Shown piece after piece: positions 10,836-53,278 of a DNA stretch of 64,000 nt. The translations under genes and the position numbers were made by a program. Source of the stretch: Candidatus Multivoradales bacterium (GTDB lineage Bacteria > Acidobacteriota > Thermoanaerobaculia > Multivoradales > JAHEKO01). Under the pieces are notes generated by a model. The model saw nothing but the letters and a program-made list of their open reading frames with translations. It was not told the DNA's origin and did no database searches. Within the stretch, counting starts at the first letter, position 1. Every line of letters starts with the position of its first letter. Where the stretch lies: the NCBI GenBank assembly GCA_965223855.1, contig CBDCXM010000008.1:672001-736000 (forward strand), written 5' to 3'.

Positions 10836-11890
10836 ACACTCCGCATCGGCGTACTGTCGCCGTCTTCTCGAGGAGAGGCACGCCGAAGAGCGTCGAGATC
10901 TATGCTGACCAGATCTGTCGCCACCTCGAGGCCATGAACTGGAAGATTCTCGGTCTTTCAGCCGACCGGGGAGTGCCGGAAGAAGCCGACCTCGCCTGGT
11001 TTCCCGGTTCAACCGGGGCGTTGCTGCCACCCCTCAGGATGCTCTGCAGCTCCAGGCCTCGAATCGTGACCCTTCACGGCGCCGCGCCCCTGACCCTTGC
11101 CGCCCGCGAGTGTTTCCCGAACTCCCGGAAGCTGGCGGCCGGCATCATCCGCCACGAGGTTCGCCGCCTCGTGTGGCGCCTCCCGCGCCTCAGAGCCACT
11201 CGGGTGATCACCGTGTCGAACTTTGCCAGGCAAGAGCTGGTCGAAGCCCTGAGTCTGCCGAGGGAGCACATTTCCCCGATCTATCACGGCATCGACAGGC
11301 GAGTCTTCTACCCGAGCCTCTCCCACAACCCTGAGCAACCGTACTTTCTGCATGTGAGTACCTACCAGCCGCTGAAGAACCTGGAACGGCTCGTTGAAGC
11401 ACACCAGACCTGCCAATTCACCAAGCCGGTCAAGCTTCTGCTGATTGCATCGGGCCTTCCCAGGTCCCTTGTCGCCGGCACGACCGACGTCGAGTACATC
11501 GATGAGAGTCTCTCGCAGGAACGACTTGCCCACTACTACCGCTCAGCGGTCGCCTTCGTGTTCCCTTCTCTGCGTGAGAGCTTCGGCATGCCCCTGCTCG
11601 AAGCGATGGCCAGTGGATGCCCGGTCCTGACGTCGCGCGGCTCCGGCTGCGAGGAGGTTGTCGGCGGAGCCGCGACGCTCGTCGATCCTCGCTCGATACC
11701 GGAGATTCGTGCCGGCCTGCTGCGCCTCGCGCGCTCGAGGACCTACAGATCGAGCCTTGCGGCCAAGGGTATCTCGAGGGCTGTGAAGTTTTCTTGGAGG
11801 CGAAGCGCTTCCCAACACAGCGAGTTGTTCTCTCAGCTCGTTGATCGGGGGGCGGACCGTCAAGGCTACAGGGACCGAAGCCGCTCGTAG
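10832..11890 (+). CDS. Glycosyltransferase family 4
   Basis: FPSLRESFGMPLLEAMASG motif. Confidence 0.9.
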   Translation: MNTPHRRTVAVFSRRGTPKSVEIYADQICRHLEAMNWKILGLSADRGVPEEADLAWFPGSTGALLPPLRMLCSSRPRIVTLHGAAPLTLAARECFPNSRKLAAGIIRHEVRRLVWRLPRLRATRVITVSNFARQELVEALSLPREHISPIYHGIDRRVFYPSLSHNPEQPYFLHVSTYQPLKNLERLVEAHQTCQFTKPVKLLLIASGLPRSLVAGTTDVEYIDESLSQERLAHYYRSAVAFVFPSLRESFGMPLLEAMASGCPVLTSRGSGCEEVVGGAATLVDPRSIPEIRAGLLRLARSRTYRSSLAAKGISRAVKFSWRRSASQHSELFSQLVDRGADRQGYRDRSRS

Positions 11891-12657
11891 CCAAACCGGC
11901 TCATCACGTCTCCGTCGAGCTGCTCATTGACCAGCGCGACAGTCTCGCGATCGAGTGCGTTGCGCCACTGTTCGGTCAGAGTACGTTGACGATAGTTCGC
12001 GTAGGTCGCGTGATCGCCCTTCGTGGACTCCTCCACGTTGACGAAGTCGACCCTCCTTGGCTCGATGGCGAGCGACGAACAGAGATCCGACAACGTTGCA
12101 CGAGGGTTCAGCACCAGATCTTCGTAGCGGACATGGCGCGTCGGAACGCCTCCCGCGAGTTCGAGGTAGCTCTTGTTCTTGGCATTCCAGATCTCTATTG
12201 GAGTTCTTGATGTGAGCCTGCACAATCCCTCTCGGCGAGGCGTTTCGAAGGGCCTCAATGCAAACTTGAAGAGGTCTGTACGCGGCGCCGACAGCGAGGC
12301 GTAGGGTCTATGGAAGAGCGAGAGCAGCCAGGAGTATGGGTTCTTCGTCAGCGTGACGAATCGAAGGCCTGGAGAGCAGGCGCTGCTGGCCCGGACGAAC
12401 GCGACCGGTGGCGCCGCTGCATGCTTCCACCCCAGCGTGCGTCTGCGCGTCATCAGGTCATAGGCGTCCTTGAGAGATTCATGGCCCGGCATGAGTCGCT
12501 GCAGCGAAGCGACCCAGGCTGGGACCACACCGGGCAGGAGCGAGATATCCAGGTTCAGTTCGACGAGACGAGTCAGGTAGTTGGTGCCGGTGTTGCGGTC
12601 ACCATAGAGCTTCAGCACCCCGCTCCCGCGGTCTCGGCCGGTCTTCAGGACGCTCAA
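11866..12657 (-). CDS. Sulfotransferase-like protein
   Basis: GDRNTGTNY loop, KNPYSWLLS, VRYEDL. Confidence 0.7.
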   Translation of the reverse strand: MSVLKTGRDRGSGVLKLYGDRNTGTNYLTRLVELNLDISLLPGVVPAWVASLQRLMPGHESLKDAYDLMTRRRTLGWKHAAAPPVAFVRASSACSPGLRFVTLTKNPYSWLLSLFHRPYASLSAPRTDLFKFALRPFETPRREGLCRLTSRTPIEIWNAKNKSYLELAGGVPTRHVRYEDLVLNPRATLSDLCSSLAIEPRRVDFVNVEESTKGDHATYANYRQRTLTEQWRNALDRETVALVNEQLDGDVMSRFGYERLRSL

Positions 12658-20334: not shown

Positions 20335-22017
20335 ATGAAACTTGATAGGACGACTCCCTGTTGGATCTGGACAGCGATGCTACTCGCCGTCCCCTTTGGA
20401 GGCGTCACTGAAGAGGATCCGCGCTCATCCCTTCAGAAGGGGATCGAGCAGGCGCTAGCGCCGTGGGACAGCGACCGGACGCCTGGTGCAGCCGTGCTGG
20501 TCACTCAGGCAGGCGAGACGGTTCTCGAGTACGCGGTCGGCATGGCTGACTTGGAGCACGACGTGCCGATCACCGTCGACTCGGTGTTTCATGTCGCGTC
20601 GGACATGAAGCGCTTTACCGCAGCCTCCATATGCAGGCTCGCCGAACGAGGCAAGCTACGCTTCGACGACCTGCTGTCCGCCCACATCCCGGAGACTGCT
20701 CCGCTCGGTGAACGGATCACGCTGGATCAGTTGCTCTCGCACACGTCCGGTTTGCGGGACCAGTGGTCACTGCTGGCCATGGCTGGTTGGCGGCCGGAAG
20801 ATCTTGTCACGCACGAACAGGTACTGTCGCTCCTCTACCGCCAGGCCTCGACCAACTTTCCGCCGGGCGAAGAACAGATGTACTCAAACTCCGGGTACAC
20901 CCTCCTCGCCGAGGTCGTCTCCCGAGTGGCCGACGTTCCCTTCGCTGACTTCGTGCATCGAGAGTTCTTCGAGCCCAACGGCATGAAGCGAACGCAGGTT
21001 CGCTCCGACGTCAGGGCCATCATCAAAGACCGAGTCGAATCCTACCTTCCGAACGGCGAGGGCGGCTATCTACGCCGGCCGGTCGAGTACGAGGTTCTTG
21101 GTGCCACGGCTCTTCTGACCAGCGCGCGAGACCTTGGCCGTTGGATCGAAGGCGTCCAGGCGGGCTCTGCTCTCACATCCTTCGAGCGCCGGACAATGCT
21201 GGCCCCACGACGACTCCCCAATGGTGATCCGATGACCTACGCCTACGGTCTGTTCGAGCACGATCTGCATGGCCACTCAGCTATCGGTCATGGTGGCGCG
21301 GACGGAGGGTTCAGGAGCTACTTCCTGAGAATCCCCGACGCACAACTGGGCGTCGTCGTCCTCGCCAACACCCCCGAGATCGAGCCGAACGGACTTGCCC
21401 ACAACATCGCAATGTGGGCACTCGGGATCGGGCCCGAGGAGCCCGGCACACTGCCGGCTGACGAGGACTCCCCTCCTCCCGATCTCGATCTCCTGGTCGG
21501 TTCCTATCGAGCTCCGGCCGGTGGCTTCATGACAGTTCGGCGCTGGTTCGATCGACTGCGCCTTTGGGAGTCGCCCGAAGCCTTCGCAGACTTCACCTGG
21601 AACGGGAGCACCGGAGCTTTCGCAGACGAACTCGGCCGCTCGCTTCAGTGCGACGGGAAGAGCTGCACACTGCGTTCCCGTAGCTCCGTCTGGCACGGTG
21701 AACGTGTACCGATCCCTGAGATCGGCCAGCTTGGCGAGTTCGAGGGAAGCTACCGCAGCTCGGAGCTCGAGGCGACCTACAAAGTGTCAAGGGTCGGCGA
21801 GGATCTCGTCGCCCGCGGCGAGCGGGGAACGTATCTGGTCTTGAGCTCAAGTGGCCGGGATTTCTTCGATGGCTCCGAGTGGTACGGCAGGGAGATGCGA
21901 TTCGTTCGAGGCCCCAGTGGCGCGATTCGCGGCTTCATGCTGTCGTCGTCAAGGGCCTTTGACGTGTTCTTCGAGCGCGAGGCCACCCCCAGCTCAGGCG
22001 TCGAGAGCACTCACTAG
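20335..22017 (+). CDS. Secreted serine hydrolase (beta-lactamase/D-aminopeptidase-like) with C-terminal extension
   Basis: SDMK, LLSHTSGL, YSN and HGG motifs. Confidence 0.85.
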   Translation: MKLDRTTPCWIWTAMLLAVPFGGVTEEDPRSSLQKGIEQALAPWDSDRTPGAAVLVTQAGETVLEYAVGMADLEHDVPITVDSVFHVASDMKRFTAASICRLAERGKLRFDDLLSAHIPETAPLGERITLDQLLSHTSGLRDQWSLLAMAGWRPEDLVTHEQVLSLLYRQASTNFPPGEEQMYSNSGYTLLAEVVSRVADVPFADFVHREFFEPNGMKRTQVRSDVRAIIKDRVESYLPNGEGGYLRRPVEYEVLGATALLTSARDLGRWIEGVQAGSALTSFERRTMLAPRRLPNGDPMTYAYGLFEHDLHGHSAIGHGGADGGFRSYFLRIPDAQLGVVVLANTPEIEPNGLAHNIAMWALGIGPEEPGTLPADEDSPPPDLDLLVGSYRAPAGGFMTVRRWFDRLRLWESPEAFADFTWNGSTGAFADELGRSLQCDGKSCTLRSRSSVWHGERVPIPEIGQLGEFEGSYRSSELEATYKVSRVGEDLVARGERGTYLVLSSSGRDFFDGSEWYGREMRFVRGPSGAIRGFMLSSSRAFDVFFEREATPSSGVESTH

Positions 22018-22139
22018 ATGTCGAGTCTCGAGGCGTTGTTCGTGTTCCGTCGAGACAGCCGCCGGAGCGGCGCTGGTCTTTGGCTTCCCTGGTGCATTCG
22101 ATGTTCATTGTCGAAATGCAGTGCTCGAGCACGAGAAGA

Positions 22140-22320
22140 TTCCGGGATTGCAGGCAGCTCGGGGCGATAGCACGATCCGTTGTCGGTCAGCGAACCCTGG
22201 ATGTGGGCGCCGTGGCCTTCTCGAGCAAAGCCGCTGCGGTCTCGGTACGCGGTCGCGAACGGCTTCCACGTAGGCCGGGCATGACCGTCGCCGATGGCGA
22301 AGTGGACAAGCTCTCTGTCG
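22140..22320 (-). mobile_element. IS481-family transposase remnant
   Basis: Translates to ELVHFAIGDGHAR and LTDNGSCYR, resembling the IS481 DDE motifs. Confidence 0.6.
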
Positions 22321-22491
22321 GCGCCAAGTCCGGTGGCGTCCTCAGCGCCCCTTCCGACACTTTCCACCTCGAGACCAGGCACTCCAGGAGTGTCTCGCGT
22401 CGAGCCTGGCAAGGGCGCCGGACGGATCCGTGGAGAACAGTCGTCAGGAGGCCCAACACATGTTGAATCCCGGAGCTGTTGGCTCCGGCTA

Positions 22492-22542
22492 CTACTCGAA
22501 CCAGGGATTGCCGCCAGCGACCAGGTTGGTTCTCACCTTCAG
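22492..22542 (-). CDS. Small peptide precursor (M)KVRTNLVAG-GNPWFE, class II, CTG start
   Basis: GAAAGGGGGTG RBS 7 nt before CTG, the same spacing as the neighbouring paralog; in-frame stop just upstream. Confidence 0.75.
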   Translation of the reverse strand: MKVRTNLVAGGNPWFE

Positions 22543-22622
22543 GGCTCATCACCCCCTTTCCGAAGCATTGGGTTGAGGATGTCTACGACCGGTTCCATGC
22601 TAGGAAGTGCTAGTTGCGGTCA

Positions 22623-22673
22623 CTACTCGAACCACGGGTTCGCACCGACGACGACTTGGGTTCTCGCCTTCAC
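22623..22673 (-). CDS. Small peptide precursor MKARTQVVVG-ANPWFE, class II
   Basis: GAAGGGGGTG RBS 7 nt before GTG; paralogous to five other sORFs. Confidence 0.8.
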   Translation of the reverse strand: MKARTQVVVGANPWFE

Positions 22674-22773
22674 AGCGCACCACCCCCTTCCTTGGGTAGT
22701 TGAGAGGATTCTCGATCGCCACGCTGAGCTTCGCGTAATGCTGGTCTCTCCGAAAGCGCCGTGGAGCCTGACG

Positions 22774-22830
22774 CTACTCGAGGATGTGGGCTGTCGACTG
22801 ACCAGCCTTGACGTTGGTCTTGACCTTCAT
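22774..22830 (-). CDS. Small peptide precursor MKVKTNVKAG-QSTAHILE, class I
   Basis: AAGGAGG RBS 6 nt before ATG; family leader. Confidence 0.85.
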   Translation of the reverse strand: MKVKTNVKAGQSTAHILE

Positions 22831-22891
22831 CGTCTGCCTCCTTGCAGAGTTGAGTGGGTACGCGATCGTTGGGCGCTCCTGACAATCAGGT

Positions 22892-22919
22892 ACGCGGCGT
22901 CGACTCCCGGGTGGACTCA
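22892..22919 (-). promoter_or_regulatory. Putative promoter TGAGTC-N17-CGCGT of peptide cluster 1
   Basis: Motif match 62 nt before ATG 22830. Confidence 0.65.
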
Positions 22920-23139
22920 CGGCGCAGCCCCCCGCCTCCTGCTCACCAAGGGGCACCTGCCACCGCCAGAGGAAACTCTTCGAAGTCGGCCCGCGTCGGC
23001 ATCCTTCGAGGCTGCCGGCGTGCCAATGGGGCCCTCCGCGACTGGCGCTCTCGAGCGGTCATCTCCACACTACCCGCCCTTGCTGGGCAAGAAGCTGCGG
23101 AGACAGCAAGCCTGCGAGCAAGACAACCGAGAAAGCGGA

Positions 23140-23766
23140 CTACTCGGTTCCGGGCGGCTCGTCCGCCAGCGCCGTCAGCAGCCAGGCCTTTGCAAGACGC
23201 CAACGCCTGAAGGCGGAGGATCGCGAAAGACCAAGAACCTCACCAGCCTCGGCAATGGACAGGCCCACAAAGTAGCGCAGTTCCACCAGTCGCGCCAGGA
23301 CCGGATCGTTCTCTGCGAGCCTTTCCAGCGCGCGATCGACGTCAACGAGAATCTCCGGCTCGTAGGCTTCCAAGGCCGCTGCCGCCTCCATCGGCACTCG
23401 GCGCCATCCGTCTCCCCTCTTGCGACACGCCCGCTTACGAGCGTGATCGACGAGGACTCGACGCATGATCATGGCGGCGACGGTGTAGAAGTGAGCGCGG
23501 TTGGTCCATCTCACCGACCGCTGCCGCGACAACCGGAGGTATGCCTCGTTGACGAGAGCGGTGGGGGCCAGGGTGTGGTCCACCCGCTCCGAGCGAAGCT
23601 GGGAGGCCGCTATCCGCCGCAGTCGCCCCACCACGAGACTGAAGAGGGCGTCACGGGCGTCGAGGCTTCCCGACCTCCAGAGGTTGAGAAGCTTGGTGAT
23701 GTCCTGGCCGGCCTCCACCGGCGGAGTCTCTAGGTCTGAAGCGAGACCTTGACTCGGATGCACCAT
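23140..23766 (-). CDS. ECF sigma factor, TIGR02999-like kinase-associated type (start 23766 or 23718)
   Basis: ITKLLNLW, HTLAPTALVNEAYLRL, WTNRAHF, RRVLVDHAR..KRG, VELRYFVGLS. Confidence 0.9.
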   Translation of the reverse strand: MVHPSQGLASDLETPPVEAGQDITKLLNLWRSGSLDARDALFSLVVGRLRRIAASQLRSERVDHTLAPTALVNEAYLRLSRQRSVRWTNRAHFYTVAAMIMRRVLVDHARKRACRKRGDGWRRVPMEAAAALEAYEPEILVDVDRALERLAENDPVLARLVELRYFVGLSIAEAGEVLGLSRSSAFRRWRLAKAWLLTALADEPPGTE

Positions 23767-23875
23767 GACAAGAAAGCTAGTCGAGCCCGCTTGACCTGTC
23801 AACGAAGTGGACCGCCCTTGCCCGAGGGAACACTCGGTGGAGCACCGTCCCAAGACGCCGAAGATTCGGAGTGCC

Positions 23876-26800
23876 CTAGTCCGGCTCGAGATCCGAAAGC
23901 CTCGAATCGGCGACTCCTCGATCGAGAATCGCCCTAGCCAGAAGCCAGGCTTCGTCGCTCCTGCCCGCCCGCGCCAAAGCAAGAGCCCGAACGCGGTCAG
24001 CTTCAAGACCGGTGGCACCGCTGGTCTGCAGGAATCCGAGAGCAGATTCGGACCGACGCTCCGGGTCCGTCCATTCTGAATCGGGATCCTCCAGGTCGGT
24101 GGCCAGGATGTGGGCTGCCGCCAATTGAACCGCTAGCTCGATGGGCAAAGCTTCCACTTCCTGGCCCTCGATCACGGGGCGGAGTATTGCTGCTGCCTCC
24201 GCAGATCGACCAAGGCTCAAGTTCACTCGTGCCCAGTCGACCTTGCTCTGAACCACTTCGCCGTTGAGGTCCTCGAGAGCCGCGGATCGGATCTCCAGAG
24301 CTCTCCGCAAGAGCGGTTCAGCTTCACGACCGCGACCATCTGCGAGTCTTGCCATCCCACCCGTTCGGAGCGCATACGCCAGGTCCGGATGATCGGGTGC
24401 GGCCTTGGCCAGGACAACAGCAGCCTCTTCCGCCAGCTGTACAGCCTCCTTCCAGCGGCCTGACAAGAACTCAAGGTCTGCGATCGCTGCCCATGTCATG
24501 GCCGACCGCGGATGAGCGTGGCCGAGGAGGGAGATTCGGAGATCCAAGGCCTTCTCGAGGTTGGGGCGCGCCGCCTCGAGAAGACCCTCTTCCAGCTGAA
24601 GGGTGCCGAGGTTGTGGAGGGCAGAGGCGACTGATTCGCTTCCTACACCCAATGTGGTCTCATAAGTCCTGATCGCCCGCTGATAGAACTCGGTCGCTTC
24701 GGTGTGCCGACCCTGAAGATCGAGCAGCACGGCCAGGTTGTGAAGCTGATCCCCCAGCCGAGGGCTCTCGCCAACCTCTCTGTCGACGATCTCGAGAGAT
24801 CGCCTGAACAAGGGCTCCGCCCGATCGAGCTGACCTCGACTGGCGAAGACCTTCGCCAGATGATCGAGACCCACGGCAAGTTCGTAGCTGTCCTCGCCGA
24901 TCTTGGTTTCGAGAATCTCAACCGCTCGAGAGAGCTCTTGTTCTGCTGCACCGAACTCGCCAAGCAGCCTCAGTGACGTACCGAGTACGAGGCGCGCTCT
25001 GCCAACCAGCAGGTGGTCGTGCGGTAGGAGATCGACTCGAATCGAGACGCAGTCTTCAAAGAGGCCCTTGGCTTCCAGATACTCACCTCTTTGAACCTCG
25101 GTCTCGCCGAGCGCGAAGAGTGCATCCGCAAGTTCGAGGCTGTGTTCACCGGCAATCTGTCTTCTGGCCTCCAAGGCGCTCAGGTGCAACGCGTGGGCCT
25201 CGGCGAGGTTACCCTCTGCTGCTTCGACCCTTCCAAGGACCAACTGGAGGTCAGCGATCATGAGAGCTTCGTCGCTTCCGGACGCTTCCACCAACTGGAA
25301 GGAACGCTCGAGCTGCTCCCTGGCTTGGGCAAGGCGGCCCACGGTGCGGTCCAGCTCCGCCATCCATCGCAGCGCATCGACAAGCGCCCCTACAGAGCCG
25401 CGCTCCTCGAATGCGGCCACCGACCGGCTGAGGAAGCGTCGTGCTTCCTCGTATTCGCCCAGCCCCACGAAAGCTCGACCCAGGGCGAGCGACAGATCCG
25501 CAGCCAATTCCGCCGGCAGCTCGTCGAGTTGCGACTCGAGCTTCGATGCCCCGGCCTCTACGATCTCCTGGGCGCTCACGCCCTCTCCGAGTGGAGACAC
25601 CGGATCGGCCCGGGCGATCAGTGACACGACGTAGTCTGTCGAAGCCCGAGCACGCTTCGTCTGCGCGGCTGCCTCGTCGAGAGCCCGCGCCTTCCGCTGT
25701 ACTTCGAGGAGTAGCAGCGGGACGAAGAGCAGAACGGAGAGGGCAAGTCCGGCGACCAGCACCGAAGCGACGGGGTGGGCGCGCGCACTCCGCGAGACGA
25801 CGTAGATCAGCGAGCGACGGCGGGTGCGCAGAGGCAGACCGTTGAGGAATCTCGAGATGTCCGCGGCAAGCGCCTCCGCCGACGGGTAGCGCGCTCCAGG
25901 GGCCGGTTCTGTTGCCGCCAGCACGATGGTGTCGACGTCTCCCCTGAGCTGGCGAACGAGACGTCGTCGTCCTACCCCGCACTTCGGAAGGTCCACCGCA
26001 CTCTCGGAGGCAACGGAGTCGCTGGGTCGTGAGAGGCGGGCTTCGCCCGACCCTCGGTGCCCTCTGGCCTGCCCCGTGACCAGGTGATGTAGCAAGACAC
26101 CCAGGGAGAAGACATCGCTTGCTGTAGTTGAAGCTTCGCCTCTGAGCTGCTCTGGACTCGCATACTCCGGTGTCATCCGAGCTTCGCCCGTCTGCGTCGG
26201 CTCTACGTCGGGCTCGAGCCGCTTCGCGATGCCGAAATCGAGGAGCTTCGGACTCCCCTCGCGGGTGACGAGTACATTGCTCGGTTTGATATCGCGATGG
26301 ATTACCAGGTTCTGATGGCTGTGGTGGACAGCCCGACAGACAGGCTCGACGAGTCGTAGCCGCTCCTCGACAGTGAGGCCTTTCAACTCGCAGTAGTCAT
26401 CGATCGGTATGCCATCGACCAGTTCCATCACGAGATAGGGCCGGCCGTCGGAGAGTTCCCCGGCGGCCAACATCTTGGCGATGTGGGGGTGCTCGAGACG
26501 CCCGAGGATCTCCTGCTCGTCGAGGAAACGACGCCTGGCGCCCTCGGCCTCCAGCGGGAGGTCGAGAATCTTGATAGCTACCAGGCCATGCGCACCTCGG
26601 GCGGCGTAGACCACCCCCATGCCACCCCTGCCGATCTCACCTTCAACTTGGTAGCCCGCCACTTCGGTTGGGGCAGCCTTCGCCGTGGCCGCCTCTTCGG
26701 CCGAGCCCTCGAGCCACCCGACTGCTCTCTCCGCTGTGCTGACCAGAGCGCGAACTTCGGCGAGGAGCGCGACATCGTCAGCACACTGGTCAACCAGGAA

Positions 26801-26881
26801 CTCATCTCTCTCCGATGCCGGTAGGTCCAGCGCCGCCTGGAAAAGCTCCTCGAGCTGACGCCAACTGCTGTCGAGAGGCAC
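23876..26881 (-). CDS. Membrane Hanks-type Ser/Thr kinase with extracytoplasmic TPR array
   Basis: GRGGMGVVY, VAIK, HRDIKPSN, DFG, TPEYASPE; one TM segment; long TPR-like helical repeats. Confidence 0.92.
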   Translation of the reverse strand: MPLDSSWRQLEELFQAALDLPASERDEFLVDQCADDVALLAEVRALVSTAERAVGWLEGSAEEAATAKAAPTEVAGYQVEGEIGRGGMGVVYAARGAHGLVAIKILDLPLEAEGARRRFLDEQEILGRLEHPHIAKMLAAGELSDGRPYLVMELVDGIPIDDYCELKGLTVEERLRLVEPVCRAVHHSHQNLVIHRDIKPSNVLVTREGSPKLLDFGIAKRLEPDVEPTQTGEARMTPEYASPEQLRGEASTTASDVFSLGVLLHHLVTGQARGHRGSGEARLSRPSDSVASESAVDLPKCGVGRRRLVRQLRGDVDTIVLAATEPAPGARYPSAEALAADISRFLNGLPLRTRRRSLIYVVSRSARAHPVASVLVAGLALSVLLFVPLLLLEVQRKARALDEAAAQTKRARASTDYVVSLIARADPVSPLGEGVSAQEIVEAGASKLESQLDELPAELAADLSLALGRAFVGLGEYEEARRFLSRSVAAFEERGSVGALVDALRWMAELDRTVGRLAQAREQLERSFQLVEASGSDEALMIADLQLVLGRVEAAEGNLAEAHALHLSALEARRQIAGEHSLELADALFALGETEVQRGEYLEAKGLFEDCVSIRVDLLPHDHLLVGRARLVLGTSLRLLGEFGAAEQELSRAVEILETKIGEDSYELAVGLDHLAKVFASRGQLDRAEPLFRRSLEIVDREVGESPRLGDQLHNLAVLLDLQGRHTEATEFYQRAIRTYETTLGVGSESVASALHNLGTLQLEEGLLEAARPNLEKALDLRISLLGHAHPRSAMTWAAIADLEFLSGRWKEAVQLAEEAAVVLAKAAPDHPDLAYALRTGGMARLADGRGREAEPLLRRALEIRSAALEDLNGEVVQSKVDWARVNLSLGRSAEAAAILRPVIEGQEVEALPIELAVQLAAAHILATDLEDPDSEWTDPERRSESALGFLQTSGATGLEADRVRALALARAGRSDEAWLLARAILDRGVADSRLSDLEPD

Positions 26882-27370
26882 GAACTAGCTCCCGCCCGTT
26901 GAGGATCTGGTGCCGACACACAGGGACGGGTGGAAGACTCGCAGCCTCACCTGCTTCACACGCAGGAGGACGGCGACCGCAGGATCGGGTACCGAAAGAT
27001 CAGCCCAGGGGCGTTTCTCGGACATCAGTTTCGATCCGGTCATGGCCATAATGCTGGTTCTGAACGCGGAGCCGGGGCCATCAACTGTACCCCCTCCAAT
27101 CGTTCTCCCTACTCCAGTAAGCGCGAAGTGGGGAGTTTCGGCTCGGCCTGCGACTGGGCTGGAGGTCTTCAGGCAGCAGAATGTGACGGAGCTGCGCCGT
27201 CCGCCTCATTTCGACCGGTTCTGCGTCCCTGGGCCGCCGCCTGGTGGCGGACACCCTCAAACTCCCGGGGACGGCCAGGCTGGCTCGACAGCGAGGCGAG
27301 GCTCCTGGCCGCTCGAAGTCGGGTTCTTCTACCCGATGATCAGCTGCGCAGGGCTAGCCCCTTCTGTCAC

Positions 27371-27397
27371 GAGTCATCCGCAGCCTCGAGGCCGCGT
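27371..27397 (+). promoter_or_regulatory. Putative promoter GAGTC-N17-CGCGT of peptide cluster 2
   Basis: Motif match 62 nt before ATG 27459; downstream TGTCGGGAGTGCCCA resembles cluster 1 TGTCAGGAGCGCCCA. Confidence 0.65.
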
Positions 27398-27458
27398 CCT
27401 TGGTGTCGGGAGTGCCCAGCCCTCGATCTGAAGTTCTACCTGTGAAGGGAGGCCGTTA

Positions 27459-27515
27459 ATGAGAGTCAGAACCAACCTGCCGGCTGGCGAGTCCACAGTC
27501 GCCATCCTCGGCTAG
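27459..27515 (+). CDS. Small peptide precursor MRVRTNLPAG-ESTVAILG, class I
   Basis: AAGGGAGG RBS 6 nt before ATG; family leader. Confidence 0.8.
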   Translation: MRVRTNLPAGESTVAILG

Positions 27516-27603
27516 AACCAACGCCTCGGCGCTCTCGAGGTCGAGGCCTCGAAGAGAACTCAAACCCTCCCCAGCCCTCCATCCATAGAAAGGAGGTGAG
27601 ATC

Positions 27604-27654
27604 GTGAAGGCAAGAACCAACGTAGTCGCCGGCGCCAGTCCATGGCTTGAGTAG
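27604..27654 (+). CDS. Small peptide precursor MKARTNVVAG-ASPWLE, class II
   Basis: AAAGGAGGTG RBS before GTG; family leader. Confidence 0.85.
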   Translation: MKARTNVVAGASPWLE

Positions 27655-27890
27655 GTGCCGGTCGAAACTCACTCCGGAGTGGATTGACGGGCTGGGCCTC
27701 CTGACGCGCGATCCAATTAGTCGCTGGAGCAGGTTCACGCGGCCCCCGGGGTCCCTCCCTAGTCCAGAGCCAAACACGGCCGCTCGTCGTGATCCTTCCT
27801 CAACTCCCAAGACAAGAAGAAGGGGGCTCGCGGGCAGTCGTCCGCAAGCCACGTCGCGGTTGGCGGCCCGGACGGGCAGAGCCCCTGACC

Positions 27891-27918
27891 TGAGTTCCTC
27901 CCAGTCTCTCTCGCGCGT
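27891..27918 (+). promoter_or_regulatory. Putative promoter TGAGTT-N17-CGCGT
   Basis: Motif match 74 nt before ATG 27992. Confidence 0.6.
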
Positions 27919-27991
27919 CCTCGATCGCATGCATTGCGCGCCAAACGGACGCTCGAATCGCCCAAGCAAGAGATACAGAAGGAGCTTTCCA

Positions 27992-28975
27992 ATGATCCTG
28001 CCAGCCAGGAAAGTCGCCAGTCTGGTCGCCGTAGCGGCCCTTGCAAGCATCACCAGTCTCGGTGCCGACTCTGAGCCGCGAGCCGAGACCGTCGTCCTCT
28101 TCGATCCTCAAGCGCTGGAAACGCCCGAGAGCATCGTCTTCGACAGCCTGGACAACGCCTACATCACACTCGCATTGACCGGCCAGGTAGTGAGAGTCTC
28201 CCAGGATGGTCGCCTGACCCTTGTCACCGAGCTGCCCATCGGGGCTCCCTGTGGTTCGGTACCGACCCTGGCTGCCGGGTTGGCCGTCGATGACAACGAT
28301 CGGCTTTTCGCAGCCGTCTCGGCATGCGACCCTGCGAACTCCGGCATCTGGGAGATCGATACCGGAACCGGCGAACACTGGCTGGTTGCCGTCGCCCCTT
28401 CCTCCGTCGCGATTCTCAACGGCCTGGACGTTCACGGCGACTATCTCTACGCCGCAGACTCCCTGGCAGGCCTCGTGTGGAGAGTGTCCACCTCGGGCGG
28501 TTCGTTCGAGGTCTGGGTAGACGACCCGCTCCTCAAGATCAGGCCGGGTTCGCCCTTTCCGGGTCCCAACGGGCTCCAGTACTACAGAGGTAGCGTCTAC
28601 GTGGCGAACTCGTCGACAGGCGCCATCGTGAGGCTTCCTATTGGGAATCACGGATCTTCGGGAGAAGCCACCGTTCACGTGTCGGCATTTCCTCTAGGCT
28701 GCGACGAGTTCACGTTCGATGTCCTGGGTCGCATCTACTGCGCCACCGGACCCTTCAACAAGGTGCTGCGCCTGACCCCGGGCGATGTCCCATCGACCGT
28801 TCTCGATGCCGGTGACCTGCTCGACGTCCCCACCTCGGTGGCTTTCGGACGACGCGGGCGGAACAAGAGGTTTCTCTACATCGCCAACGCCGCCTTCCCG
28901 TTCGCCACTCAGCAGTTTCGGCCCAGCCTGATGAGGCTGCCCGTGGACATCCCGGGGGATCCTCGGGAGTACTGA
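27992..28975 (+). CDS. Secreted SMP-30/gluconolactonase-like beta-propeller
   Basis: AAGGAG RBS; signal peptide; PESI, NGL, GPNGL, DEFTFD blade motifs. Confidence 0.8.
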   Translation: MILPARKVASLVAVAALASITSLGADSEPRAETVVLFDPQALETPESIVFDSLDNAYITLALTGQVVRVSQDGRLTLVTELPIGAPCGSVPTLAAGLAVDDNDRLFAAVSACDPANSGIWEIDTGTGEHWLVAVAPSSVAILNGLDVHGDYLYAADSLAGLVWRVSTSGGSFEVWVDDPLLKIRPGSPFPGPNGLQYYRGSVYVANSSTGAIVRLPIGNHGSSGEATVHVSAFPLGCDEFTFDVLGRIYCATGPFNKVLRLTPGDVPSTVLDAGDLLDVPTSVAFGRRGRNKRFLYIANAAFPFATQQFRPSLMRLPVDIPGDPREY

Positions 28976-30794: not shown

Positions 30795-30822
30795 TGAGTC
30801 AAGAGTCTGGGCGTTCTCGCGT
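30795..30822 (+). promoter_or_regulatory. Putative promoter TGAGTC-N17-CGCGT
   Basis: Motif match upstream of 30966. Confidence 0.6.
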
Positions 30823-35485: not shown

Positions 35486-35928
35486 TAGCCCCCTGTCGCC
35501 TATTCACTCCCCGGTCGAGTCCCCGCGTTTCTCGAGTCACGCCTCCGGGACCTACCTGAGGATCGGGGCGGCGGGCTCACTGCGGGTTGGCCAGCGCATC
35601 GACTCGACTGCAGGTGATCGTCGCCTCGTCGGGGACTGGACGCTCAGGCTCGGCTCTCGGACGAGGGACCTCCGTCCGTCCAGGTCCTCGTCCGTGGGGT
35701 TTTTCAGGCCGCCCTAGTCATCAAGACCCGGGTTGTCGGTGCCGGACCTGTCGCACCCAACTCACACTCTCTGGATCAAGGAACTCGGATGGGGCCACTA
35801 CTGGACTCACCCCCGGAGACGCCGCGGTCCGCCAGCGACTCGTCGAAGCACTCCCACGGGTCAGGTGTGGCCGAGACTCGATCGGGGGAACGAGAGCAGG
35901 TTCTCCTCCGGACTGCGCGGACCCTCCA

Positions 35929-41715: not shown

Positions 41716-41743
41716 TGAGTTGAGAATGCGGGATTTGGCGCGT
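41716..41743 (+). promoter_or_regulatory. Putative promoter TGAGTT-N17-CGCGT
   Basis: Motif match; continues CGCGTACCT exactly as at peptide cluster 1. Confidence 0.6.
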
Positions 41744-44929: not shown

Positions 44930-45958
44930 CTAGCGATGCGGATCGGTGGGGCCAGGGGAAGTTCTGTACTGAAGCGCTACGCTGACGAGAATCAAGCACA
45001 AAGCCAGGCCCGGAACCCACCAGGCGCCCCTCGAGACCAGAACAAGGACGACAATCATCAGCGCAGTCCCTCTAAGCAAGCTGCCAGGTCGTGCGCTCCG
45101 CAGGAAACTCATCAGGTCCGCCAGCCACTTGAGAAGATCCCGACGGGCGATCAGTAGAACCACCGACATGACCGTCAACACCGCCGGCCTGCCCCAGGTG
45201 GAAGGCGGAGTCGGTAGATTGACCAGAGCGTGCGCAAAGATGACTGGGAGGAGAGTCTCTGTGCGCACGAACACATAGCCCGCGAAGAGTGAACCAAGGG
45301 CGAGGCTCGCCAACATGATGAGGCTCAGGGCCTCGAGGACAAGATACTGGCCGTGAGCAAGGGTGAAGAAGAGCGTGGAAAGGAGAACGGCCTCCGACTG
45401 GGCGAATCCGTCGGACAGACGGGTCACGAGGTAGCCCCGAAAGTAGAGCTCTTCGACCACCGGGACGAGCAAGAAACTGCTCGCTGCCATGAAAGCGAGA
45501 AAGCCGAGCGACCAGCTGGTGGGGAAAAGGGCCCAATGGCCTGGCCCGCTTCCGAGGGCAGGATAGAAAGTGGCCAGCAACTGAACGGCGTTCGGCAGCC
45601 AGCCCATGGCGGCCCAGAGAACGAAGCCCAGAGCCAGACTCTGGCCAAAGGTTCGACCCCCGGAGCGCATGCCATAGCTCTGAATACGTCGGCGACGCAG
45701 CCAGTAGCCGAGAACGTAGAAGAGTGCGAGGGCAAGCCCGTACTTGAGCGCCTGTTCGATCGTTGCGAGTCGGGCGAGCTCCCAGAAGTCCGGGGTCCCA
45801 GATACCACCATCTCTGACTGGACGACCTTCCACTGCGGAACTCCCAAGCCTGCCTGCACGAACCTGCCGGCGAAGATGGCGACGATCAGGACGCCGACGA
45901 CCTCCAGGATCGCTGCAAGCTCAGTTGTTCGGGACGAGGTCGATACCGTCAAAACCAC
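44930..45958 (-). CDS. CPBP (CAAX/Abi-type) intramembrane metalloprotease
   Basis: EELYFRG, FTLAH and HALVN motifs; multiple TM helices. Confidence 0.9.
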   Translation of the reverse strand: MVLTVSTSSRTTELAAILEVVGVLIVAIFAGRFVQAGLGVPQWKVVQSEMVVSGTPDFWELARLATIEQALKYGLALALFYVLGYWLRRRRIQSYGMRSGGRTFGQSLALGFVLWAAMGWLPNAVQLLATFYPALGSGPGHWALFPTSWSLGFLAFMAASSFLLVPVVEELYFRGYLVTRLSDGFAQSEAVLLSTLFFTLAHGQYLVLEALSLIMLASLALGSLFAGYVFVRTETLLPVIFAHALVNLPTPPSTWGRPAVLTVMSVVLLIARRDLLKWLADLMSFLRSARPGSLLRGTALMIVVLVLVSRGAWWVPGLALCLILVSVALQYRTSPGPTDPHR

Positions 45959-46203: not shown

Positions 46204-46260
46204 TCACTCCAGGATCGGCATCAGCGATTGACCTGCCTTGACCTTGGTCTTGACCTTCAA
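46204..46260 (-). CDS. Small peptide precursor MKVKTKVKAG-QSLMPILE, class I
   Basis: AAGGAGGT RBS 6 nt before TTG; directly downstream of the exporter operon. Confidence 0.85.
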   Translation of the reverse strand: MKVKTKVKAGQSLMPILE

Positions 46261-46435: not shown

Positions 46436-48538
46436 CTAGTGCGTCACGAGGACGAGCGCGCCGTCCACATTCTCCAAGGCGCTCAGAACAGTCTCGGCGG
46501 TTGCCGGATCGAGGCCCGAGAGACTCTCGTCGAGAACGAGAAGTCTCGGGCCCTGCAACAGACCCCTCGCAACAAAGACTCTCGATCTTTCGCCATGAGA
46601 CAGACGCCACCCAGACTCGCCAACCAACTGATGGATACCTGCGGGCATGCGATCCAACAAGTCCCCGAGGCCCAGACTTCTGCAGACACGCTCCGCCTGC
46701 CGCAGATCAAAGACCGATGCTGGCCACCGCCCGCCGATCAGGAGGTTGTAGGCAAGGGATCCGGTCAGTAGGTGGTTCCTGTGGAACTGCGGCACAAGTG
46801 CCACGGTCCTGCGTCGAACCGCCGGCGGCATCGACCTGACCTCGAACCCGGAGGCTACGACGGTACCCTCCTCAGGAACGAGGTTCCCAGCGAGCGCTGA
46901 GACCAGGGTCGACTTTCCCGAGCCCGATTCTCCGGACAGTAGGATGCGTTCGCCTTTCTCGATGACAATGGAGCAGTCTCTGAGCACTGCTCGCGATCCG
47001 AACCGATGTGAGATGCCGTGTGCTCTCAGCACCGGCCTTTCCTGACTCTCGCTCAACCTCGACAGGTGTGGCCGGGCCTCCGACCTTGCGAATCCCGAGG
47101 CGATCGACTGCCACGAGGCAGCAGCCCTGGACAGGTCTTCGACCCCGCGAACCAACTTCCACAGTGCCCGGTAGACGAACAGAATTCCACCCACCGTAGC
47201 GGCGATGACAAGGCCGTCGCGATTGGCTCCATAATCGGCGACCGACAGTAGAAGTGCCAAGGCCAGCCAGGCTCGCGGAATGACTGACTTGAGCCGCACT
47301 TCGGACCTATCGAGACGGTCAGTCTTTCGGGTCAGTCTCGCCAGCCGATGGTCCTCTTCGAGATGATGGCAAGACTCGTCTTCTTGAACTCTTCGCGTCG
47401 TCGACCCGACCACCTTCTCCACAGCGTCCTTTGCAACAAGGGCATGACTCCTCGTCCACTCCAACCTCGTCTTGAAGGCCTCTCGACCGCTCAAGACGAC
47501 CGAACACACCGCCACACCAAGAAGAAAAAGGTGGAGACCTGGCGTGAGGCCGAAGGCGAGGAGCCCCGCTCCCAACGCCACCTCGAGCAGAGCGATGAGA
47601 CCGATGTGGGCGCCGCCAAGGGCGTATGTCTCGAGAGACTCCGCCTCGAACAAGGCACCTAGAGCGCGGCCGAGGCCCATCGACTCCTTCGCGTCCTCAG
47701 GCTCTGAGAGAGCAGAGTCCAGCAGACGCTGTCTCACCACGCGCCCCACTGTCACCGTGGCAGTGGCCAGCAGCGAAACTTCGGCAGCCCGGAATGGCGT
47801 CACGCTGCCGAGGAGTAGAGCCCAGAGCACCACCCACGCCGGCGATGAACGGTCCGCAAGGACAACTCCGGCAAGAATCCACCAGGAAGAGAGCAACAGA
47901 ACATGCTGGAGAAGGTGCGCCGACAGCAACTTGCTCACGGTTCCGACAAAACCAGCCGCCTTGAGTTTCTGCCAAGGCGATGCAGAGCTGACAGTGCCTA
48001 CAGACCAGACCCCAGCGCTCCCCCGAGGTAACTCACTCCAGGAGGCGTAGCTCATTCGCACCCGGTCGCGGCCCTTCTTCGACAGGCCACTTCTCTCCAG
48101 GACTCCAAGCAAAGTGGCCAGTCCCTGTGCCGACCTCTCAGGCAGCAGCTCCGAGATCACCTCCGCGATGTCCATCCAGCGCCGCTCGCCGGTGGGAGTC
48201 ACTGCGAGGAATCGATGTCGCCTTCGCTCAACCACCAGCAGGAAGGACAGCTCACCATCAGTCTCGCAAACGAGAAGAGCCGGGTGTTCCCCAGGTTCGG
48301 GTAGGTCTTCCGCGGAAGCTATTAGCCAGTGCTTGCCGGTCGTGAGACCGAGGTCTCGCAGTTGGCTCTCGAGCCACTCGCCCACCTCGGCCATGGAGAC
48401 GGGGCCACTCTCGAGCGCCGGTCCCTCAGACTCCCAACCGGCGAGAAAGACCGCTAGCGCCTCCTTGAGTCGGCTTGCCGGCCATTTCTGGCTCAAGGGC
48501 CGTCCAGACGACCCTCTCGGATCTCCAAGTGTCGCCAC
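46436..48538 (-). CDS. ABC transporter TM+ATPase subunit (partner of the peptidase-containing subunit)
   Basis: GESGSGKS, LSHGE, LLVLDE; TM domain; no C39 catalytic motif recognised. Confidence 0.85.
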   Translation of the reverse strand: MATLGDPRGSSGRPLSQKWPASRLKEALAVFLAGWESEGPALESGPVSMAEVGEWLESQLRDLGLTTGKHWLIASAEDLPEPGEHPALLVCETDGELSFLLVVERRRHRFLAVTPTGERRWMDIAEVISELLPERSAQGLATLLGVLERSGLSKKGRDRVRMSYASWSELPRGSAGVWSVGTVSSASPWQKLKAAGFVGTVSKLLSAHLLQHVLLLSSWWILAGVVLADRSSPAWVVLWALLLGSVTPFRAAEVSLLATATVTVGRVVRQRLLDSALSEPEDAKESMGLGRALGALFEAESLETYALGGAHIGLIALLEVALGAGLLAFGLTPGLHLFLLGVAVCSVVLSGREAFKTRLEWTRSHALVAKDAVEKVVGSTTRRVQEDESCHHLEEDHRLARLTRKTDRLDRSEVRLKSVIPRAWLALALLLSVADYGANRDGLVIAATVGGILFVYRALWKLVRGVEDLSRAAASWQSIASGFARSEARPHLSRLSESQERPVLRAHGISHRFGSRAVLRDCSIVIEKGERILLSGESGSGKSTLVSALAGNLVPEEGTVVASGFEVRSMPPAVRRRTVALVPQFHRNHLLTGSLAYNLLIGGRWPASVFDLRQAERVCRSLGLGDLLDRMPAGIHQLVGESGWRLSHGERSRVFVARGLLQGPRLLVLDESLSGLDPATAETVLSALENVDGALVLVTH

Positions 48539-51081: not shown

Positions 51082-52216
51082 GAGCCGCTCTAGCCTTTTC
51101 GACCTGCCGTATTGCGACCTGAAGAGGAGTCACTCGATCTACCTCGATGTCCACCAGACACGGCAGGCCCGCCTCCAACGGAGCGTCTCCATCATCCAGC
51201 AAACGAAGTACCACCTGAACGAGTCCCTCTACTTCCTCGCTACCGACACTCGCCACCTCGGCCGGCATTCTGCGGCGTCCGTTCACAGCATGCTCCAGCC
51301 GAACTACGGCCGGCTGACCAGCTCTGACACGACCTACCGCTCCAGGCGGGGCCAACCTCGCTCGCACGACCAGCGGGCCTTCGGGAAGCAAGCTCGCCAG
51401 TCGCTCACCCTTCGAGACGAGTCCACCGACCTCGGTCTCCGTGACACTCGCCACGACACCGGAGCGAGGAGACCGCACTCTCAGGTCCCGGACCGTGCGC
51501 TCCGCCAGAGACACGGCTTCCTCAGCCGCCTGCAAGGCGGCCTCCAGGACGACCATCTCCGACTCGATCTGCTCGAGTGCGGAAGCTTCATCCAGAGCGA
51601 TCCGCTCTCCAGACCGAGTTCCTCCTGTCAGGACCTCCCTCGCAGCCGCCAGGGCACTCTTCCTCGTGACGACCTCGCTGCGAAGCGCATCGACTACCGC
51701 AGCGCTCACGATCCCCTCCTCGTGGAGGCCCTGTTCCCGATCGAGCTCTGCCTCGGCACGCCTCAGAGCCTCGGCCGACGTGTCTCTCGCAGCAGCCAAC
51801 TGGCGCAACAGTGCAGCCTGCTCGGCCGCGCTCACCGACAGTCTCGCGACGGCCAGGGCGCGGGCCCGGTCTCGCTGGCGCAGCTCGGCCCTTACCGACG
51901 TGAGCGTGGCACGTGCCTGAGCAAGGATCAGGTCCTGCGACGGGCTCTCCAGAACGGCGACCAGCTCGCCCGGACCTAGCCGGTCGCCCGGAGCCACCTC
52001 GAGGCTGGAAAGAGCGCTCTCCATTCGGGCCGAGATCTGCAGAAAGCCAACCTCGGACTCGACACGCGCAACCTCCGAAGTTACATAGACAGGCACGGAA
52101 GCCACCGCAAACCAGACCAACCAGCCCAAGATCAGACTCGAGGGCACGATCACGTTGCTGGCTCGCCTGCGACACAGATCCACCAGGACCGCAAGAGTTC
52201 TCGGAAAAACCGCCAT
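51074..52216 (-). CDS. HlyD-family membrane fusion protein
   Basis: N-terminal TM; lipoyl half-motifs VAPGDRL/VRSPRSGVV flanking a coiled coil. Confidence 0.88.
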   Translation of the reverse strand: MAVFPRTLAVLVDLCRRRASNVIVPSSLILGWLVWFAVASVPVYVTSEVARVESEVGFLQISARMESALSSLEVAPGDRLGPGELVAVLESPSQDLILAQARATLTSVRAELRQRDRARALAVARLSVSAAEQAALLRQLAAARDTSAEALRRAEAELDREQGLHEEGIVSAAVVDALRSEVVTRKSALAAAREVLTGGTRSGERIALDEASALEQIESEMVVLEAALQAAEEAVSLAERTVRDLRVRSPRSGVVASVTETEVGGLVSKGERLASLLPEGPLVVRARLAPPGAVGRVRAGQPAVVRLEHAVNGRRRMPAEVASVGSEEVEGLVQVVLRLLDDGDAPLEAGLPCLVDIEVDRVTPLQVAIRQVEKARAALG

Positions 52217-52316
52217 GAGGGTCCGACCGCTGCTCAACTTGCTCACTGTCTCAAGGTCAGGTTCAAACCAAGGAGTTCGAAGACCCCGCCAGGTCACAAG
52301 GCCGAGAAGCGACCCT

Positions 52317-52344: not shown

Positions 52345-52666
52345 CTCGGCTTCCTGCCGCTCCACTCCGCTAGGGTCTCGAATCGTCGGCGACGCAGATC
52401 CCAATCGGCCCAGCATGCATCTCATCTGGCGCAGCATGGAACTCAACCAACGGCAGCCGCGCGTTCTCGATAGGAGGAACGCGTCTTTCGGTGAAGATCA
52501 AGCTCACACCACGGCAACGACCGAGGCCGGCCACAGCAGGCCGTACGGTGTTGGCCACAAGCAGGCTCATACTCAGAAGGTATGAACTCATACTTTTCAA
52601 GGTCTTGGCGTATCGACCTGGTGCGCCTACACTGCCCTTCCCCCGATCGACCTGCGTCGGCTCAAG

Positions 52667-53278
52667 ATGACTGCTCAAGCCTCTTCAAATCAATCCACCG
52701 TCAACACGGAGTCGGAAGGCACCGTCACCCTCCTCCTTGGCGCCTGGTCGCGAAGAGAGCCGGGAGCGCTCGACGATCTGTTCTCACACGTGTTCTCCCG
52801 CCTGCAGCGCATAGCGACCGGGCATCTAAGAAACGAAGGTCTGGGCCAAGGAATGGAGGCTCGAGACCTCGTGAACGAGTCGTACCTCAAGGTCGTCCGC
52901 CAAGGCCCGGTCGCTTGGCGCAACCGAGCCCACTTCTACACCATCGTCTCGATGATCATGCGGAGAATTCTGGTGGACCACGCGCGGAAGCGCCACGCAG
53001 AGAAGCGGGGAGGAGGCTGGCAGCGGGTACCACTCGATCAGGCCTGCCAAGCTCTCGAGGGCGACAGGGCCAGCCTTGTCGACATCGATCGGGCTCTGAA
53101 GAAGCTCTCGGTCACGGACCCCGAACTAGCGCGCGTGGTCAATCTCAGGGTCTTTGGTGGCTTTTCTGTCGAAGAGACAGCGAAGATCCTTGGCTGCTCC
53201 CGAGCCACACTCGGGAGGAGGTGGCGTCTCGCAAAGGACAGCCTGGCAGATGCACTCGGAAGAAGACAGACCGACTGA
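52667..53278 (+). CDS. ECF sigma factor, TIGR02999-like, with atypical region 2.2 (EARD)
   Basis: VTLLLGAW, WRNRAHF, RRILVDHARKRHAEKRGG, LRVFGGFS. Confidence 0.88.
   Translation: MTAQASSNQSTVNTESEGTVTLLLGAWSRREPGALDDLFSHVFSRLQRIATGHLRNEGLGQGMEARDLVNESYLKVVRQGPVAWRNRAHFYTIVSMIMRRILVDHARKRHAEKRGGGWQRVPLDQACQALEGDRASLVDIDRALKKLSVTDPELARVVNLRVFGGFSVEETAKILGCSRATLGRRWRLAKDSLADALGRRQTD

Follow-up and report, generated by a model that had tools for sequence, protein, structure and literature searches.

Mini-peptide genes with a common leader, linked to a C39 peptidase-exporter and a kinase–ECF sigma pair, in an Acidobacteriota genome

Peptide signalling is well described in Firmicutes and, to our knowledge, almost unknown in diderm soil phyla. 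Here we analyze a stretch of 64,000 nucleotides from Candidatus Multivoradales bacterium (Acidobacteriota; assembly GCA_965223855.1, contig CBDCXM010000008.1, positions 672,001 to 736,000), hereafter the window, in which six mini-genes encode peptides with a common 10-residue leader, in the company of an ATP-binding cassette (ABC) exporter with a C39 peptidase domain and a Ser/Thr kinase paired with an extracytoplasmic function (ECF) sigma factor. Among described systems, the streptococcal ComC/ComAB/ComDE and BlpC/BlpAB/BlpHR sets are double-glycine pheromone systems (PMC7595303; 10.1101/783472). Like these, the window encodes small precursors, a leader ending in Gly and a C39 ABC exporter, by which the peptides would be cleaved and exported. 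The streptococcal peptide loci are autoregulated and sensing of the mature peptide takes place at the membrane; we propose the same here. In contrast to the streptococcal systems, the leader has 10 residues rather than ~20–25, the cores have 6–8 rather than 17 or more, the host is diderm, and the exporter comes with a HlyD adaptor as well as a second ABC subunit. The presumed receptor differs as well, being a Hanks-type Ser/Thr kinase with tetratricopeptide repeats (TPR) that would act on an ECF sigma factor, instead of a histidine kinase with a response regulator. Overall, the window system would work like the double-glycine pheromone systems but lies outside their leader-length and hydrophobic-position criteria.

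With respect to regulation, the window pair is similar to EcfK/PknS of Xanthomonas citri and EcfP/PknT of Vibrio parahaemolyticus, which, in the passages seen, combine a co-encoded kinase with the lack of an anti-sigma gene (PMC13147305, PMC7826278). The larger kinase of the window (kinase 1) has the layout given there for PknS, namely an N-terminal extension, a kinase domain, one transmembrane (TM) segment and a periplasmic TPR domain (PMC13147305). In ECF43 factors, as the same passages put it, the acidic DxxD of region 2.2 is replaced by an uncharged QTTA with a conserved Thr, and activation occurs through phosphorylation by the kinase (PMC13147305); the window sigma factor, judged by eye, appears to be similarly uncharged in this region and contains a Thr, with PTA in place of QTTA. 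Unlike ECF43-type pairs, for which these passages name neither a peptide ligand nor linked peptide genes (PMC13147305, PMC7826278), the window pair has mini-peptide genes on either side and a link to a peptidase-containing ABC transporter (PCAT). The passages give the presence of amoebae as the stimulus of the Xanthomonas pair and name no ligand (PMC13147305). If the window peptides are indeed TPR ligands, they would be natural signals for kinase-activated ECF sigma factors. We know of no bacterial peptide signal that is read by such TPR-kinase/ECF logic.

Three further systems bear comparison. The PatS/HetC system of Nostoc, a diderm, shares with the window a peptidase-based ABC exporter (PMC10986499). 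As here, the exporter is linked to a precursor of <20 residues with a short active C-terminal part. The sequences are unrelated, however, and PatS/HetC includes no kinase–sigma pair. The target of the PatS product is HetR, a cytoplasmic regulator, so that the receptor logic is unlike the one proposed here. Export of the NHLP/Nif11 type (TIGR03796, TIGR03797 and TIGR03794) provides the best NCBIfam matches for the peptidase ABC transporter, the second ABC subunit and the HlyD protein, but the window exporter scores far below the cut-offs (156.6 against 853 bits, 107 against 709 and 42 against 156). Substrates of NHLP/Nif11-type exporters have leaders of ~70–80 residues. Finally, RRNPP systems (Rap/NprR/PlcR/PrgX) rely on re-import of the peptide and a cytoplasmic TPR receptor joined to an effector or helix-turn-helix domain, whereas the window TPR domain comes after the single transmembrane segment of a kinase, is predicted to be periplasmic and is not joined to a helix-turn-helix domain.

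The genes, the family to which they belong, their leader/core anatomy, the intact C39 site, the genomic linkages, the kinase topology and a promoter-like element are established by the analysis below. Building from these, we propose that each precursor would consist of a 10-residue leader, M-K-x-K-T-x-x-K-A-G, and a variable core of 6–8 residues. The C39 peptidase domain of the window exporter would cut immediately after the invariant Gly10, and the exporter, together with its second ABC subunit and the HlyD adaptor, would release the cores QSTAHILE, ESTVAILG, QSLMPILE, ANPWFE, GNPWFE and ASPWLE. The ECF sigma factor encoded between the two clusters would transcribe the peptide genes, and the transmembrane Ser/Thr kinase would activate it by phosphorylation. 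The best candidate for a sensor of the exported peptides is the large periplasmic TPR domain of this kinase. Such sensing would close an autoinduction loop and make the whole a peptide signalling circuit. Gly10 cleavage, export, sigma dependence in this genome and TPR sensing of the peptides are thus the steps that we infer. We consider the chances evenly balanced that the products of the mini-genes are precursors of very short, secreted peptides, cleaved at Gly10, exported and under kinase–sigma control, with perhaps sensing by the kinase in addition; the full signalling loop seems rather less likely than not. As the predicted products are linear, 6–8 residues long and cheap to synthesize, the signalling idea is directly testable.

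Mini-genes, leader and peptide family

Five of the mini-genes had been pointed out in an earlier sequence-only reading of the window, and all five are present at the positions it gave, with 16–18 codons each. Cluster 1, on the minus strand, consists of a class I gene (22777–22830; MKVKTNVKAGQSTAHILE; ATG start, profile score 41.5 bits), a class IIa gene (22626–22673; KARTQVVVGANPWFE; GTG start, 31.3 bits) and a class IIb gene (22495–22542, with its stop codon at 22492–22494; KVRTNLVAGGNPWFE, also given as LKVRTNLVAGGNPWFE; CTG start, 35.8 bits). Cluster 2, on the plus strand, holds a class I gene (27459–27512; MRVRTNLPAGESTVAILG; ATG start, 37.3 bits) and a class II gene (27604–27651; KARTNVVAGASPWLE; GTG start, 34.5 bits). 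A sixth copy, overlooked in that first reading, is a third class I gene adjoining the exporter genes (46207–46260, minus strand; KVKTKVKAGQSLMPILE; TTG start, 37.2 bits). When a profile of the six peptides was run against the 4.52-Mb genome, it returned exactly these six matches (31.3–41.5 bits), and the runner-up scored 17.1 bits.

The translation signals of these genes are consistent. Each of the six is preceded by a Shine–Dalgarno (SD) sequence, AAGGAGG or AAGGGGGTG, 6–9 nt upstream of the start codon. Four of the six start codons are not ATG (CTG, GTG, GTG and TTG); the copies displayed from relatives all begin with ATG. The CTG start suspected for class IIb is borne out, as an in-frame TGA lies two codons upstream with no ATG, GTG or TTG in between. 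The spacing of its SD sequence (GGGGGTGA) also fits the CTG, and the sole alternative start is an in-frame GTG at codon 3. At the codon level, the Pro of the three class II genes is written CCG, CCC and CCA, and pairs of class II genes differ by 2–5 synonymous codons. From 21500 to 28500 no Rfam family was matched with E values of up to 1, and folding of the spacers between cistrons was no different from that of shuffled sequences (z of −1.45, −0.36 and −0.04). In our judgement the window mini-genes are very probably real.

All six window peptides share the leader M-K-x-[KR]-T-x-x-x-[AV]-G, after which the sequences diverge into cores of 6–8 residues. Among 22 aligned family sequences, Gly10 is invariant (22/22) and Met1, Thr5 and Ala9 are at least 90% conserved; in the window the leader ends in Ala-Gly in five of six peptides and in Val-Gly in class IIa. 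The family leader therefore shows the Gly at −1 and the small residue at −2 that define the double-glycine criterion. Across homologous arrays the leader is invariant and the cores are hypervariable. These results support the earlier view of the mini-genes as leader-plus-core precursors of the secreted-peptide type, and processing after Gly or Ala-Gly is plausible given a C39 exporter with intact catalytic residues in the same window. The invariance of Gly10 and the family-wide core pattern x-x-x-W-x-x, a hexapeptide, favour ANPWFE, GNPWFE and ASPWLE over the pentapeptide products that had been suggested for class II. Class I cores are kept across genera (QSTAGILE, QSTTGILE, QSTTAILE and QSVGAILE), and the core ESTVAILG of the cluster 2 class I gene is identical in a genome of another taxonomic family (G079).

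Leader-bearing mini-open reading frames (ORFs) were found by profile search in 10 of 61 genomes of relatives and, across the order, in 20 of 300 (both counts including G000). By taxonomic family, and with G000 not counted, the peptide-bearing genomes number 9/44 in f1, 4/24 in f6, 1/57 in f8 and 5/92 in f7; this search of the order found no mini-ORFs in its other families and none in the four genomes of the same genus. G005, an f1 genome marked as unpublished, likewise gave no match. A back-translated leader DNA pattern (~38 bits) matched at least 118 stretches in 185,579 species genomes. Judged by record titles, the matches fall in Acidobacteriota (Blastocatellia, Terriglobia, Bryobacteraceae, Thermoanaerobaculia and Pyrinomonadaceae), Pirellulaceae, Myxococcota including Nannocystis, Anaerolineae and other Chloroflexota, and several Gammaproteobacteria. 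The locus counts used below rest on 80 loci of 8 kb out of these at least 118 stretches, 72 of which contain at least one SD-preceded mini-ORF. Among these 72 loci, arrays reach 13 copies, and the core types comprise x-x-x-W-x-x hexapeptides, (I/M)DPNG nonapeptides, cores with two Cys and multi-unit precursors. The last follow the scheme (KVKTxVKAG-core-NHNQTVARGL)n, with cores of 4–10 residues and up to four or five repeats (loci L067, L109, L120, L102 and L061; proteins P0004–P0099).

With a 67-residue multi-unit member as query, 899 homologues were recovered at E up to 0.01 from a set of 5.8 billion proteins. Among the best 120 of the 899, the names given by the sources are all 'hypothetical protein' apart from one 'CxxC motif-containing protein', and all but one of these are devoid of Pfam domains. 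For 13 sequences, comprising one window ORF extended upstream, two relatives of 30–35 residues and ten longer family members, searches of Pfam-A and NCBIfam 20.0 with E values of up to 1 yielded no credible hit to the leader. Searches of the literature with the leader strings as text returned only unrelated papers, and no description of the peptide family was found in the literature searched, which did not extend to supplementary files and tables (such as the ECF groups of PMC7826278). What emerges is a large mini-peptide family, present in at least five phyla, that is defined by a simple, searchable 10-residue leader and has been missed by gene callers. Its members are coupled to a dedicated peptidase-exporter and, recurrently, to Ser/Thr kinase-dependent transcription systems.

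Peptidase-exporter and kinase–sigma pair

The exporter genes of the window, all on the minus strand, encode a HlyD-type periplasmic adaptor (51074–52297), a PCAT with C39 domain, membrane domain and ATPase (48493–51081; PF03412 at 3.4e-18) and a second ABC transporter subunit that lacks a peptidase domain and resembles NHLM_micro_ABC2 at a score below its cut-off (46436–48538). They are followed, in the order of the locus, by the third class I mini-gene and then by a gene for a CPBP/Rce1-like intramembrane protease (44930–45958, minus strand). Four residues of the C39 domain, Gln, Cys, His and Asp, align with the active site of PCAT1 (4ry2). Homologues of the exporter also occur beside peptides elsewhere, with PCAT in 17, the second ABC subunit in 18 and HlyD in 8 of the 72 loci (19 for ABC genes and 10 for HlyD when neighbours were clustered), and the exporter is present in 5 of 13 wider loci of relatives. 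Two of these loci (L023 and L025) share the order promoter, peptide, HlyD, PCAT and second ABC subunit. Cleavage and export of the peptides are probable in our judgement.

The distribution of C39 domains across genomes points in the same direction. In family f1, exactly one C39 match was found in each of the 10 peptide-bearing genomes (nine plus G000), and the domain is present in 3 of the 35 genomes without peptides (G025, G029 and G032, the last with a weak match at 4.9e-7). Elsewhere in the order, almost every genome has a C39 domain (234 of 300), and the f1 genomes are kin and not independent of one another. For both reasons, we treat the association between peptides and C39 as a within-family pattern and not as a statistic. 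The four genomes of the same genus have neither peptides nor a C39 domain, and the GC content is 63% in the window as compared with 68% in the genome, so the whole system looks acquired. These observations suggest that the window is an acquired island.

The kinase–sigma pair lies between clusters 1 and 2. ECF sigma factor 1 (23140–23766, minus strand) matches PF07638 at 2.6e-51 and TIGR02999 with 194 bits against a cut-off of 126, so that it exceeds the cut-off of either model. Ser/Thr kinase 1 (23876–26881, minus strand; 1001 residues) is adjacent and co-directional, and no anti-sigma domain was found within 22.5–27.7 kb. The N-terminal extension of the kinase is followed by a kinase domain (residues 77–340), a single TM segment (~372–394) and ~600 residues of TPR repeats, which are predicted to be periplasmic. 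Region 2.2 of sigma factor 1 reads HTLAPTALVNEAY (APTALVNEAY); judged by eye and unaligned to ECF43 members, it is uncharged and contains a Thr, with PTA rather than QTTA.

A promoter-like element, GAGTC-N16-CCGCGT, heads both clusters (22892–22918, minus strand, in cluster 1; 27371–27397, plus strand, in cluster 2). A scan for sigma-70 promoters between 22000 and 28200 found no sites. The geometry of the element is that of TGATCA-N17-(C/T)CGCGTTA in relatives. Strict matches to TGATC-N17-(C/T)CGCGTTA number 11 in ~240 kb from 13 loci of relatives, and all are tied to peptide genes, with nine directly upstream of a peptide gene and two ahead of a 63-residue ORF that is itself followed by the peptide. 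In one locus (L027), this ECF-type promoter heads an operon of peptide, sigma factor and kinase, as one would expect if the ECF factor regulates itself. Pairs of a sigma factor and a kinase with TM segment and TPR domain adjoin peptides in five loci (L027, L034, L035, L079 and L132), which account for five of the seven peptide-adjacent kinases examined; the remaining two kinases have other architectures.

Other lineages show a different type of control. The first gene of the array stands behind a sigma-54-type promoter (TGGCA-N-TTGCA) in five arrays. An FHA-GAF-sigma-54 activator is encoded next to arrays in five loci. These features were noted in Acidobacteriaceae-type genomes (L080, L087, L131, L133 and one more locus from that neighbour cluster, together with L111 and L136). 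These activators are a second route that depends on Ser/Thr phosphorylation.

Weighing the proposed circuit against its rivals

Several observations weigh against the circuit proposed here. Clusters 1 and 2 are 19–24 kb from the exporter genes. The consensus leader of double-glycine precursors has ~15–30 residues and conserved hydrophobic positions at −4, −7 and −12, and the present leader is atypical for a C39 substrate, with 10 residues, a Val, Leu or Ile at −4, a Lys or Arg at −7 and no position −12; the leader of class IIa, moreover, ends in Val-Gly and not in Ala-Gly. Conservation of class I cores across genera is unlike typical pheromones, which are strain-specific. With respect to transcription, a matrix built from the promoters of relatives (training sites of 34–43 bits) misses both window elements, which are outside its top 40 matches in the genome, the best match elsewhere scoring 21 bits, and the two sets share no more than the spacing and the −10 element CCGCGT. 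The pattern GAGT[TC]-N17-18-CGCGT occurs six times in the window against 0.67 expected (47 times in the genome), an enrichment for a pattern that was derived from two of these six sites. Adjacency to the regulators is a minority pattern (sigma factor in 5 and kinase in 11 of the 72 loci), and as these phyla carry many kinases of this sort, part of the adjacency may be chance. Finally, the TPR domain of kinase 1 has no close orthologue in the taxonomic family, the best matches showing 28–37% identity over part of the length, which is paralogue-level.

In its widest form, the proposal would make the window the first peptide quorum-sensing-like circuit of Acidobacteriota or other diderm soil phyla. 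Ultra-short linear peptides behind a universal 10-residue export leader would be released by a C39 ABC transporter and read by a TPR kinase that phosphorylates an ECF sigma factor, with the FHA sigma-54 activator as the reader in other lineages. We regard this form as possible but doubtful.

The strongest of the alternatives is that the peptides are exported antagonists, in effect very small bacteriocins or microcins, with the CPBP protein as immunity factor and the kinase and sigma factor regulating production only. Tandem multi-copy arrays with hypervariable cores would fit such a function, as would the PCAT, ABC and HlyD genes, which are typical of class II bacteriocins and microcins, and the two Cys or longer cores of some family members. 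The CPBP/Abi-type gene downstream of the third peptide can be read in the same way, since proteins of this type serve as bacteriocin immunity factors in Firmicutes. Beside peptides in the other loci examined, however, the CPBP gene was not found (0 of 13 and 0 of 72 loci). The window cores, with 6–8 residues, no Cys and no modification, are also far shorter than the mature class II microcins and bacteriocins, which run to tens of residues, and an arms race would not predict the conservation of class I cores across genera. An antagonistic role is thus unlikely in our view.

Somewhat less probable still is that the mini-genes are precursors of a new class of peptides made on the ribosome and modified after translation (RiPPs), in which the leader recruits a modifying enzyme before export. 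The leader/core architecture is that of a RiPP precursor, the repeats of the multi-core precursors (KVKTxVKAG-core-NHNQTVARGL) have flanks resembling recognition sequences, and the family is widespread and unannotated, as the 899 homologues of the multi-unit member attest. Methyltransferase genes are found in 5 of the 72 loci. Yet neighbour clustering over these loci recovers only ABC, HlyD, kinase, sigma factor, sigma-54 activator, MacB and a generic methyltransferase, and no modifying enzyme of this kind adjoins the three clusters of the window.

An intracellular role, which we think improbable, would make the peptides small regulators or substrates of the kinase–sigma pair and the conserved N-terminus a functional element and not a leader. 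It is the N-terminal 10 residues that are conserved, and class I cores keep an invariant Ser beside a Thr (Q/E-S-T) as a possible phospho-acceptor. A second regulator pair of the window is also relevant here. Divergent from the exporter operon are the genes for ECF sigma factor 2 (52667–53278, plus strand; PF07638) and Ser/Thr kinase 2 (53154–54266, plus strand), the latter a kinase domain only, without TM segment or sensor domain. Against this stand the co-occurrence of the peptides with a peptidase-exporter that they adjoin, the repetition of the N-terminal unit before every variable core in multi-unit precursors and the predicted location of the kinase 1 sensor domain outside the cytoplasm. 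That the mini-genes arose by chance or do not code for protein, being RNA elements for instance, is barely credible, for although the ORFs are very short, four of six have non-ATG starts and standard gene callers would skip them, the profile search is specific to the six, an SD sequence precedes each, amino acids are conserved amid synonymous change within and between genomes, and neither Rfam nor spacer folding gave a signal.

Cassette organization and neighbouring features

In terms of arrangement, the proposed exported peptides are encoded in two clusters that had been read as a duplicated, diversifying cassette, and the alignment agrees with this. From promoter to class II stop codon, 198 of 274 aligned columns are identical between cassettes 1 and 2 (72%; z = 13 against 200 shuffles), which makes the two clusters diverging inverted paralogues. 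The 5' leaders quoted for them, TGTCAGGAGCGCCCA and TGTCGGGAGTGCCCA, are present, and the equal spacing between promoter and start codon was likewise recovered, as the common GAGTC-N16-CCGCGT element ends exactly 61 nt before either class I ATG. Both clusters do point outward, cluster 1 leftwards and cluster 2 rightwards. Cluster 1 is downstream of, and co-directional with, the kinase and then the sigma gene, and cluster 2 is divergent from the kinase.

The fixed order of class I before class II did not hold as a property of the family. With class I defined as [QE]S...I.[EG], class II as x-x-x-W with no more than 8 core residues, and arrays joined at gaps of up to 400 nt, both classes occur together in none of the 103 distinct arrays outside this genome, a count that more distant class I/II pairings would escape, some relatives' loci being only 3 kb long. 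Twelve of these arrays contain class I only, 22 class II-like genes only, 1 class II plus another type, and 68 other types. Among 106 distinct arrays in total, the two classes are joined only in the two arrays of this window. Metagenome contigs, in which a pattern scan matched four stretches (two of them family members), added two more class II-like genes, each solitary. Since no two-class array was found elsewhere, we consider the order of class I followed by class II a local feature that was copied once by duplication.

The gene set of the window, taken as its longest non-overlapping ORFs, includes genes behind further promoter-like sites. These sites (GAGT[TC] or TGAGC-N17-18-CGCGT, or matches to the matrix) are at 27892–27918, 30796–30822, 41717–41743, 52479–52506 and 35499–35532. 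The genes behind them encode a secreted SGL-type propeller, a 381-residue protein, HlyD and a 543-residue protein; GAGT[TC] sites stand, among other places, ahead of the genes at 27992 and 30930, and the TGAGC variant stands before HlyD. These sites may form a local regulon, the pattern having been set after the fact.

Two minor observations concern the loci of relatives. Peptides of the class I type adjoin a TPR-CHAT protein and a zf-HC2/TPR anti-sigma-like protein (L032:5814–8900 and 10881–12230, L034:10131–13037 and L060). In two genomes of one genus, the 63-residue ORF that separates the class I peptide from its ECF-type promoter is conserved (L023:9751–9942, and L025 on the minus strand from 10239) and reads MK....IWL.EYEGLLP ... 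TPTAFFE.

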